DNA of 64,000 nt from an uncultured Planctomycetota bacterium (lineage in GTDB: Bacteria > Planctomycetota > PLA2 > JAEUHO01), in contig CAVYXV010000004.1 of assembly GCA_963772585.1 (NCBI GenBank), positions 275,375 to 339,374 on the forward strand, given 5' to 3'. Below, piece after piece: positions 23,381-23,929 of the stretch. The position numbers and the translations under genes are program-made. Within the stretch, counting starts at the first letter, position 1. The number at the start of each line of letters is the position of its first letter. The notes below the pieces were generated by a model. It had not been told where the DNA came from. It did not search any database and worked only from the letters and a program-made list of their open reading frames with translations.

Positions 23381-23852
23381 GCTGCCGCCCCCTCCGCTCG
23401 GCCTTGGGCCTCGCTACCCCATGCGTGGGATCGCTTCGACGCCCGGAATTGGCAACGCCCCCTCCGGCCGAGAGGGGGCGCCGAAATGGTAGCGGCGGGT
23501 GGACTTGAACCACCGACCGCGTCCCTTCGGGACCCGGTCGAGGCGACGGGATCCTGTGAGGGGGCTGCCGCCCCCTCCGCTCGGCCTTGGGCCTCGCTAC
23601 CCCATGCGTGGGATCGCTTCGACGCCCGGAATTGGCAACGCCCCCTCCGGCCGAGAGGGGGCGCCGAAATGGTAGCGGCGGGTGGACTTGAACCACCGAC
23701 CGCGTCCCTTCGGGACCCGGTCGAGGCGACGGGATCCTGTGAGGGGGCTGCCGCCCCCTCCGCTCGGCCTTGGGCCTCGCTACCCCATGCGTGGGATCGC
23801 TTCGACGCCCGGAATTGGCAACGCCCCCTCCGGCCGAGAGGGGGCGCCGAAA
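23381..23852. repeat. 183-bp tandem repeat (about 2.6 units) made of the tRNA-Met 3' flank (105 bp), the last 32 nt of the tRNA, and a 46-bp linker
   Basis: gctgccgccccctccgctcgg... recurs at 23381, 23564 and 23747 (period 183). Copies of tggtagcggcgggtggacttgaaccaccgacc, which is the T-arm plus acceptor 3' half of the adjacent tRNA, lie at 23487-23518 and 23670-23701 and are in phase with the intact tRNA at 23853. Confidence 0.85.
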
Positions 23853-23929
23853 TGGTAGCGGCGGGTGGACTTGAACCACCGACCCCACGCTTATGAAGCG
23901 TGTGCTCTGACCGACTGAGCTACGCCGCC
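23853..23929 (-). tRNA. tRNA-Met (anticodon CAU; elongator-type or possibly tRNA-Ile2 / lysidine)
   Basis: Reverse complement reads GGCGGCGTAGCTCAGTCGGTCAGAGCACACGCTTCATAAGCGTGGGGTCGGTGGTTCAAGTCCACCCGCCGCTACCA. It has a 7-bp acceptor stem, the D-loop AGCTCAGTCGGTCAGAGC, an anticodon loop CTTCATAAG, T-loop GGTTCAAGTCC, and an encoded CCA. Coordinates are good to about 2 nt. Confidence 0.85.

Follow-up and report, generated by a model that had tools for sequence, protein, structure and literature searches.

In an uncultured Planctomycetota bacterium, the tRNA-Met gene at 23853-23929 of a 64,000-nt stretch of contig CAVYXV010000004.1 (the window) is followed by a 183-bp tandem array. Each unit of this array contains a module, consisting of a domain of hairpins fused to an exact copy of the 3' tail of the tRNA. 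As far as aligned sequences can tell, the hairpins are kept by compensatory changes, at the same site, across deeply diverged uncultured Planctomycetota. We favour the reading, with a probability of roughly 0.5, that the modules are an undescribed structured RNA that shares its tail with the tRNA, is made in the tRNA sense, is probably co-transcribed with tRNA-Met, and has been amplified and homogenised by unequal recombination. A first-pass annotation of this DNA had described the array as stacked attachment-site (att) scars and had offered a transcribed tRNA-linked small RNA as the alternative; the sequence evidence favours the latter.

A tandem array of tRNA-tailed modules

ARAGORN, Rfam and Tandem Repeats Finder agree on the tRNA-Met(CAU) gene and on the 183-bp array with a 32-nt tRNA tail in each unit, as the first-pass annotation had it. 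The array and its tRNA are composed of the following features:

23853-23929, minus strand: tRNA-Met, anticodon CAU (ARAGORN; Rfam RF00005, 70.8 bits)
23943-23971, minus strand: promoter of tRNA-Met, -35 TTGACC (23966-23971), 17-nt spacer, -10 TACCGT (23943-23948), read from the sequence
23853-23884, minus strand: 32-nt core within the tRNA, GGUC, T-arm (GGUGG-UUCAAGU-CCACC), acceptor 3' strand CGCCGCU and ACCA, repeated in every full module
23796-23852, minus strand: spacer 1, 57 nt, without a U tract; identical copies at 23613-23669 and 23430-23486
23822-23846, minus strand: G+C hairpin of spacer 1, GCCCCCUC-UCGGCCG-GAGGGGGC
23670-23795, minus strand: module 1, 126 nt (covariance model R1, 108.6 bits, E 1e-16; RNAfold -69.1 kcal/mol, z -3.2)
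23487-23612, minus strand: module 2, identical to module 1 (repeat finder and covariance model)
23379-23429, minus strand: truncated module 3, first 51 nt, with hp1, the P1 5' strand, hp2, and the 5' strand and loop of hp3, without a core

Tandem Repeats Finder reports a single array at 23379-23884 with a period of 183, 2.8 (2.77) copies, 100% matches, 0 indels and a score of 1012. The repeat search places copies at 23379-23561 and 23562-23744 with 100% identity and another at 23745-23927 with 83%, since the latter runs into the tRNA body. Being perfect, the 183-bp repeat cannot be chance. Read along the minus strand, the tRNA is followed by two units of 57-nt spacer, 94-nt domain and 32-nt tRNA tail, and then by a spacer and the first 51 nt of a third domain. 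This domain breaks off at 23379, inside the hp3 loop, and leaves a partial nhmmer match (23376-23428, profile positions 2-68). The two core copies, at 23670-23701 and 23487-23518, are identical and share the orientation of the tRNA. The same 108 nt stand behind all three cores, so that the sequence after the intact tRNA equals that after each partial copy. The inter-core DNA of 151 nt is of host-like composition, and no compositional anomaly is seen around the array in this window of 72.7% G+C.

The earlier partition of the unit into 105 nt of flank, 46 nt of linker and 32 nt of core is correct within 3 nt, an ambiguous CCC permitting 108/43/32 as the alternative. The description of the linker as novel and unrelated sequence does not hold: together with part of the flank it forms a folding domain of ~94 nt, fused to the 32-nt tail, and this domain carries compensatory changes between genomes whose neighbouring ChaN protein is only 51-60% identical. 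Likewise, the C-UUCG-G hairpin had been misplaced, as CTTCGG lies in the linker and not in the flank, and in the tRNA sense it reads GUCCC-GAA-GGGAC and is not a UUCG tetraloop.

Each unit holds two G5/C5 hairpins, one in the spacer and the other inside the module. The spacer hairpin (GCCCCCUC..GAGGGGGC, 23822-23846) is complementary to hp3 of the module (GAGGGGGC..GCCCCCUC, 23740-23759) in every unit and also in the related locus L010. When the whole array (551 nt) is folded, the G5/C5 runs allow cross-pairing within and between units, a property that is not conserved in L003.

The tRNA-Met is presumably not an initiator, as it has neither a C1xA72 mismatch nor three G-C pairs in the anticodon stem. 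Its promoter motif, TTGACC-N17-TAC(C/G)GT, also stands upstream of the orthologous tRNA in L010, L018, L021, L022 and L023. The consensus scanner used for promoters and terminators is too strict for this lineage of 73% G+C: it misses even this conserved promoter, and the only terminator it found is that of L004. Both Logan contigs from the window's own organism (L001, L002) extend only 26-73 bp beyond the stop codon of ChaN and do not reach the tRNA and array; they give no independent check of copy number. Over the 64 kb of the window and ~150 kb of related loci, searches with nhmmer and the covariance model found no copy of the module outside the tRNA-Met site, and none of the core elsewhere in the window.

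Fold and covariation of the module

The module comprises a 5' domain of ~94-115 nt with three to four hairpins and a copy of the tRNA-Met T-arm, acceptor 3' strand and CCA, ~115-145 nt in total. Module 1 is built, from 5' to 3', from these elements:

hp1, leader hairpin: CCCA-CGCA-UGGG
P1: 5' strand GGUAGCG, paired with the 3' strand CGCUACC in the tRNA tail, which is followed by the terminal A
hp2: GGCC-CAA-GGCC
hp3: GAGGGGGC-GGCA-GCCCCCUC, followed by a single-stranded segment
hp4: GACCGGGUCCC-GAA-GGGACGCGGUC, followed by the T-arm

In all five genomes that carry it, the tail is 27-32 nt long, starts 0-4 nt before the T-stem and ends with ACCA. It is identical to the tRNA-Met of its own genome, including the lineage-specific T-stems GGUGG/CCACC, GUUGG/CCAAC, AGUGG/CCACU and ACUGG/CCAGU. 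Six contexts share one 5' boundary of the module. Identity of the 5' domain is 84% between the window and L003 and 62-66% between the two subfamilies. The branching of the modules is roughly that of their hosts, the window and L003 being paired in both trees.

Independent RNAfold runs return the same closed multi-hairpin plan in five of six variants (z -2.0 to -4.2). The predicted plan consists of hp1, P1, hp2, a G-rich hp3 of 8-10 bp, a single-stranded stretch, hp4 and the T-arm, with the invariant GGUAG(CG) of P1 predicted to pair with (CG)CUACC of the tRNA tail. The outline resembles a cloverleaf but is not a tRNA: the loops have 3-4 nt, the connectors are wrong, the position of the anticodon arm is taken by a stem of 8-10 bp with a 3-4-nt loop, and the acceptor register is shifted by 3 nt, whereby the CC of CCA is paired.

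The tabulated helices are canonical in 203 of 210 cells (97%), and 13 of 35 pairs show compensatory changes, distributed over hp4 (5/7), hp3 (3/8), hp2 (2/4), hp1 (1/4), the T-arm (2/5) and P1 (0/7). Register-shifted controls of the same table reach 45-61% canonical cells with 0-2 compensatory pairs. In the model-derived alignment, pairing reaches 92.6%, compared to 84.1% in shuffles and 40-55% in slid registers, and the covariation score of 0.249, against 0.092 in shuffles, was reached by none of 500. A conserved and covarying domain argues for selection on a folded single strand. The two non-identical modules of L009 (L009a and L009b) agree throughout the 3' half, and the changes that distinguish their hp3 are compensated, a pattern that shows both selection on pairing and gene conversion spreading from the core.

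The strand of action is weakly suggested to be that of the tRNA. Five of six variants fold more stably in the sense than in the antisense direction, the tabulated helices contain one G.U and zero A.C pairs, and hairpins with U-rich tails follow the modules of L006, L009 and L010 in this sense.

Orthologous sites in related genomes

Orthologous sites were reached with ChaN as the synteny anchor (P0001, 100% identical to the window protein, on a 352-kb contig). The nearest ChaN homologues are only ~50-60% identical, several of them recorded as Planctomycetota; the L010 row is left out of the ChaN identity tree. Module number varies from 0 to 4 among the relatives (0, 1, at least 2, 2, and 3+1), and the DNA between cores always measures ~150-170 nt.

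In L003 (identical to L007), an uncultured Planctomycetota metagenome-assembled genome with a 2.3-Mb contig, tRNA-Met is followed by an array with a period of 180 and 3.2 copies. A fourth module and core lie beyond a two-gene insert of 1.36 kb, which starts exactly after the ACCA of core 3 and ends at module 4 and core 4. The first 18 nt of the L003 spacer are common to the native downstream flank. L006 carries exactly one extra unit after tRNA-Met, together with two near-identical terminator copies that are orthologous to the native terminator of L004. L004 itself is an empty site with only the tRNA and a scanner-confirmed terminator; its ChaN is 79% identical to that of L006, and the two tRNAs are identical. 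Empty sites are also found in L005, L018 and L023. The comparison of syntenic loci that the first-pass annotation had proposed thus returned the empty single-tRNA sites it had envisaged, and also the same module kept across distant relatives.

Pattern scans of metagenomes added two further carriers: L010, with the tRNA and at least two units, and L009, a short contig without the tRNA, whose two non-identical units adjoin a Clp_N gene and where one module follows coding DNA with no core before it. The matches L008, L013 and L014 represent textbook att-type scars, in which AT-rich foreign DNA abuts a partial tRNA without a module, and the remaining matches are chance. A terminator-like hairpin with a U-rich tail takes the place of the spacer in L006, L009 and L010, following each module in the tRNA sense.

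L021 (2700-2800) retains a decayed remnant, with the spacer still in place, a deletion of the 5' domain and a mutated core. Its T-loop has changed from UUCAAGU to UUCACGU, CUACCA has become CCACCCA, and the T-stem is altered on both sides (ACUGG/CCAGU to ACGGG/CCCGU). In L022 (5100-5914), DNA of lower G+C with a phage-type HNH endonuclease (PF01844; PHROG 144/589) directly follows the orthologous tRNA-Met. This DNA is probably the end of a prophage or island, and its phage-type character marks tRNA-Met as a real integration target in the clade. The interval between the tRNA and PilZ contains different genes in every lineage and is an insertion hot spot.

Several other repeats and rearrangements were observed at these loci. 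In L003, the variable interval that holds the module array also contains an unrelated tandem array (17123-17899; 97-bp unit, 8.0 copies, 97% matches), which overlaps a 261-aa gene called between those for the SPM-domain and PilZ proteins. A Clp_N-domain gene lies beside the modules in both L003 (13143-13850; downstream and co-oriented) and L009 (upstream and divergent), and this opposite arrangement suggests an inversion or rearrangement around the array. L018 has a 13-nt unit (TTTCCCTGGGGCA-like) repeated three times directly after the ACCA of tRNA-Met (2011-2050), and L021 has a ~20-nt unit repeated three times at ~3625-3685.

Comparison with described families

The element fits no described family. 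With Rfam, at gathering cut-offs as well as at E<=10, only the tRNA was found in the window and four relatives, so that the Rfam check suggested by the first-pass annotation places the array outside the structured RNA families of Rfam. ARAGORN does not call the modules as tRNAs and reports no tmRNA. The module has no blastn match in the phage and plasmid records, and five pattern scans of viral contigs gave no module match, returning one unrelated phage tRNA cluster and three chance matches of <=15.5 bits with the covariance model. A derivation of the module from a diverged duplicate of the promoter and tRNA gene was also considered; the likeness of the 5' end seen by eye does not exceed z 0.5 against dinucleotide shuffles in four genomes, and this candidate was rejected.

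A T-arm with an acceptor-type helix at the 3' end recruits tRNA-processing or tRNA-binding factors in the tRNA-like domain of tmRNA, in viral 3' tRNA-like structures and in mascRNA. Unlike tmRNA, the module has no open reading frame (ORF) or tag, its acceptor register is shifted by 3 nt with CCA partly paired, and it occurs in a tandem array tied to one tRNA gene. REP and BIME elements consist of a GTAG head and a hairpin and are dispersed in hundreds of copies. The module likewise has an invariant GUAG before G+C-rich hairpins and forms tandem clusters in the intergenic DNA after a gene, but it is much larger, is fused to a tRNA tail, and has no second site within the 64-kb window and ~150 kb of related loci.

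The bacterial Y RNAs YrlA and Yrn1 resemble the module in their length of ~100-150 nt and an authentic-looking T-arm, and their paired 5' and 3' ends have a predicted counterpart in P1; several may lie next to each other in the genome and be released from a common precursor, and their tRNA-like part can be a substrate of RNase P (PMC4201824). Such RNAs are recognised by their location within ~2 kb of rsr, the gene of the Ro60 orthologue, by a 5' GNCGAAN0-1G contact for Rsr, and by the T-arm and end stem (PMC4201824). The module has the T-arm, as a tRNA copy, and P1 is predicted in five of six folds without covariation. In contrast to YrlA, it has no rsr nearby and no Rfam match; no TROVE/Ro60 (rsr) gene occurs in the window neighbourhood or in L003, L004 and L006, GNCGAAN0-1G appears in only two of six variants and at different positions, and the module's T-arm and 3' end repeat the adjacent tRNA gene letter for letter and evolve in lock-step with it. 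An assignment to YrlA was therefore rejected on the missing rsr linkage and the rarity of the contact motif.

Partial-tRNA repeats of the att type share with the array a direct repeat from T-stem to CCA downstream of an intact tRNA, tandem copies, and a hot spot of variable genes. Ordinary attR partial tRNAs flank islands of kb scale (PMC9897764), and gene-less att-bounded units (CIMEs) and their tandem accretion are documented (PMC5704250). The array differs from these in its ~150-170 nt between cores, in the identical flank after the first and last copies, and in that no integrase was found. The module, as the corresponding arm, consists of covarying hairpins across very distant hosts and is absent from the viral, phage and plasmid collections searched. 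The pseudo-tRNA 'tRNA-Other' of Bacillus cereus is described as a tRNA-like gene that does not serve translation, located beside a tRNA integration site at an island edge and with a regulatory phenotype (PMC3399842). As described there, it is a single gene with a recognisable full cloverleaf, whereas the modules are not accepted by tRNA models and have no part of the tRNA other than its T-arm and 3' strand.

Genomic neighbourhood of the array

Based on codon-position G+C and Pfam, the genes of the window are ordered as M64 peptidase, a 91-aa ORF, a TPR-like ORF, PilZ, an HNH-like ORF, an orphan ORF, the array, tRNA-Met, a ChaN lipoprotein, an NYN_YacP protein, a beta-eliminating lyase and an adenine deaminase. 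The features next to the array are:

19408-19851, plus strand: PilZ gene, confirmed by Pfam, syntenic and conserved
19852-23378: lineage-specific DNA between the array and PilZ, with the HNH-like ORF, the orphan ORF and ~370 nt of non-coding sequence; context, outside the module
19902-21623, minus strand: HNH-like ORF, without a Pfam, PHROG or PADLOC family
21827-23005, plus strand: orphan ORF without a family match, its frame supported by the phase of third-position G+C (GC3)
24336-25352, minus strand: ChaN-family lipoprotein gene, directly upstream of the tRNA (PF04187, E 1.5e-45)

The 19852-23378 segment has no blastn or tblastn match in any relative, while PilZ matches L003, L004 and L006. 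The PilZ gene had been counted as part of an accessory-looking stretch; the protein family is confirmed by Pfam, but the gene is conserved and syntenic rather than accessory. The HNH nuclease named in the same stretch is not confirmed by Pfam, PHROGs or PADLOC. A common HNH element targeting tRNA-Met was rejected, as neither Pfam nor PHROG supports the HNH-like ORF of the window, which bears no relation to the genuine phage HNH of L022. Each of the ~30 window ORFs scanned either is a housekeeping gene or lacks a family match. Neither among these nor in the precomputed Pfam annotation of the called genes of L003, L004 and L006 is there an integrase, reverse transcriptase, TnpB/IscB, Cas12, transposase or Ro60, which is in line with the earlier statement that the window contains no integrase. 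PADLOC gave 0 matches to defence systems in the window, and a defence-island context was dropped on this basis.

Wherever the examined loci of relatives extend far enough upstream, the order NYN_YacP (a predicted RNase-fold protein), ChaN and tRNA-Met (window 24336-27343) is kept. As it occurs with and without modules, it has no specific link to them. A 95-nt 'tRNA-Phe(GAA)' called by ARAGORN at 18403-18497 on the minus strand sits within the TPR-like ORF (17539-19335, plus strand), where Rfam finds nothing, and is almost certainly a false positive. The position of the TPR-like ORF is taken, in the loci of the relatives, by a TPR gene flanked by those for PilZ and the M64 peptidase.

Proposed origin and function of the modules

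We postulate that read-through from the tRNA-Met promoter would yield a tRNA-(module)n precursor; read-through is suggested because the units have no visible promoter and the spacer hairpin of the window has no U tract. The authentic T-arm, stacked on a P1 that buries the first two Cs of CCA, could then let tRNA-maturation enzymes excise and stabilise each module, and the same P1 would prevent its aminoacylation. Once processed, the non-chargeable module may imitate the elbow and 3' half of tRNA-Met, acting as a mimic or decoy towards some factor that binds tRNA. Unequal homologous recombination between core (and spacer) segments, together with gene conversion among them, would let the array grow and shrink and keep it identical to the tRNA. 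These processes would account for the perfect identity of the window copies, the mosaic of L009a and L009b, the clean loss in L004 and the decay in L021. The third copy of the window may have been cut in the hp3 loop by an unrelated insertion or rearrangement that brought in the DNA at 19.9-23.4 kb.

Several observations weigh against this structured-RNA reading. No promoter was recognised inside the units by the consensus scanner, which is strict for this lineage, and the plausible terminator between the tRNA and the first module in L006, L009 and L010 would make read-through leaky. The covariation derives from 6-7 distinct sequences of five genomes, all of high G+C content, which readily gives rise to hairpins; the tabulated helices were picked by eye, and alignment A4 was fitted to the model. 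Covariation is never seen in P1, whose 3' strand is frozen by tRNA identity and whose two 5'-side changes are uncompensated, so that this predicted helix is conserved but unproven. Covariation of hairpins alone cannot separate RNA from folded single-stranded DNA, and the role as decoy or mimic is speculation. Furthermore, a repeat from T-stem to CCA is exactly what integrases targeting the T-loop produce, the site is a real insertion hot spot, and in L003 and L009 inserted genes are bounded distally by a module, in the manner of an attR-proximal arm.

These last points belong to an explanation by gene-less integrative cassettes resembling CIMEs, in which each spacer, module and core would form an attP-sized site of an element targeting the T-loop of tRNA-Met. 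In a variant of this explanation, the units would represent the conserved P-arm end of decayed islands. In either form, they would be accreted in tandem and site-specifically by an integrase encoded elsewhere, and the hairpins would be a cis-acting feature of folded DNA or RNA, which would itself be unusual. We regard such an origin as less likely than the structured RNA, of which it remains the serious main rival, and some of the att-site interpretation in the first-pass annotation stands. The core spans T-stem to CCA in direct orientation downstream of an intact tRNA, the unit of 180-200 bp has the typical size of a complete attP, and decay to gene-less att-flanked elements with tandem accretion has precedent (PMC5704250). 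Copy number ranges from 0 to 4, the gene content between tRNA and PilZ differs in every lineage, and phage-type HNH DNA lies right behind the tRNA in L022. The 1.36-kb insert of L003 begins after the ACCA of core 3 and closes with module 4 and core 4, and a module of L009 follows coding DNA with no preceding core. What does not fit is, above all, the flank. Integration by attP x attB recombination would put element DNA first and native DNA last, but the same sequence follows the intact tRNA and the most distal copy (108 nt in the window, the terminator in L006), unlike simple attL/attR logic. Serial integration and excision, as had been proposed, sits poorly with inter-core DNA that is always short and free of variable island debris, with no island in the window, although two genes do lie between core 3 and module 4 in L003. 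The 18 nt that the L003 spacer shares with the native flank point to duplication and not to a crossover in the T-loop, and the foreign DNA of the window joins the array inside hp3 and not at a core. Conservation takes the form of covarying stems instead of fixed protein-binding blocks, the module tree roughly tracks that of the hosts, the module is missing from the viral contigs, phage records and plasmid records searched, and no integrase was seen in the ORFs and annotations covered. It is on the constant flank and inter-core length, the native share in L003, the lack of a visible recombinase and the covarying domain that we favour a structured RNA over att scars.

Three further explanations account for less of the data. 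In TnpB/Cas12 omega RNAs and CRISPR RNAs, including the tRNA-homing CRISPR RNAs of CRISPR-associated transposons, a scaffold is joined to a guide. By analogy, the 5' domain of the module could be a scaffold and its 27-32-nt tRNA-identical tail a 3' guide that directs an effector encoded elsewhere to the tRNA-Met gene. A structured scaffold before a segment that matches its genomic target exactly and changes with it in each genome, at an insertion hot spot, would suit this idea. We nevertheless consider it improbable, as no TnpB, IscB, Cas12 or transposase gene occurs in the loci examined, Rfam yields no scaffold family even at E<=10, the putative guide is itself a stable T-arm hairpin with half of it predicted to be paired in P1, and identical guides in tandem would have no obvious use. 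A recent neutral duplication of the tRNA 3' end and flank, by slippage or unequal crossover and without function, agrees with the 100% identity of the window copies, and unequal recombination is certainly the amplifying mechanism. It leaves unexplained, however, the 43-nt segment that is absent after the last copy (2.77, non-integer copies), and the same 5' domain, with compensatory changes and a tail tracking its own tRNA, beside proteins of 51-60% identity. It is already contradicted by this conservation across genomes and appears very improbable. Hardly credible is a repeat mis-expanded during assembly, even though the repeat is perfectly identical with a non-integer copy number and L001 and L002 end before the tRNA. 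The same architecture recurs in four other, independent assemblies from different samples and pipelines, including the 2.3-Mb contig, and assemblers usually collapse rather than expand such repeats.

Implications

Returning to the structured-RNA reading, we give slightly less than even odds to the claim that the modules form an undescribed class of bacterial tRNA-mimic RNA welded to a tRNA gene, present as a variable, co-transcribed tandem array held in lock-step by recombination. A gene-less mobile cassette whose attachment site is a folded nucleic acid would be just as novel. Partial tRNA copies beside tRNA genes are routinely annotated as integration scars; here, such a copy forms the conserved 3' terminus of a larger folded element, which spans a deep branch of uncultured Planctomycetota and is known so far from five genomes. 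A gene-less folded cassette, if that is what the array holds, would be smaller than any integrative unit described and would suggest that nucleic-acid structure takes part in recombination at tRNA sites. If the modules are indeed RNAs, they would represent a new route to a tRNA mimic, in which the tail of the neighbouring tRNA gene is continually re-copied, and they would point to a factor that reads the elbow and 3' end of tRNA-Met.

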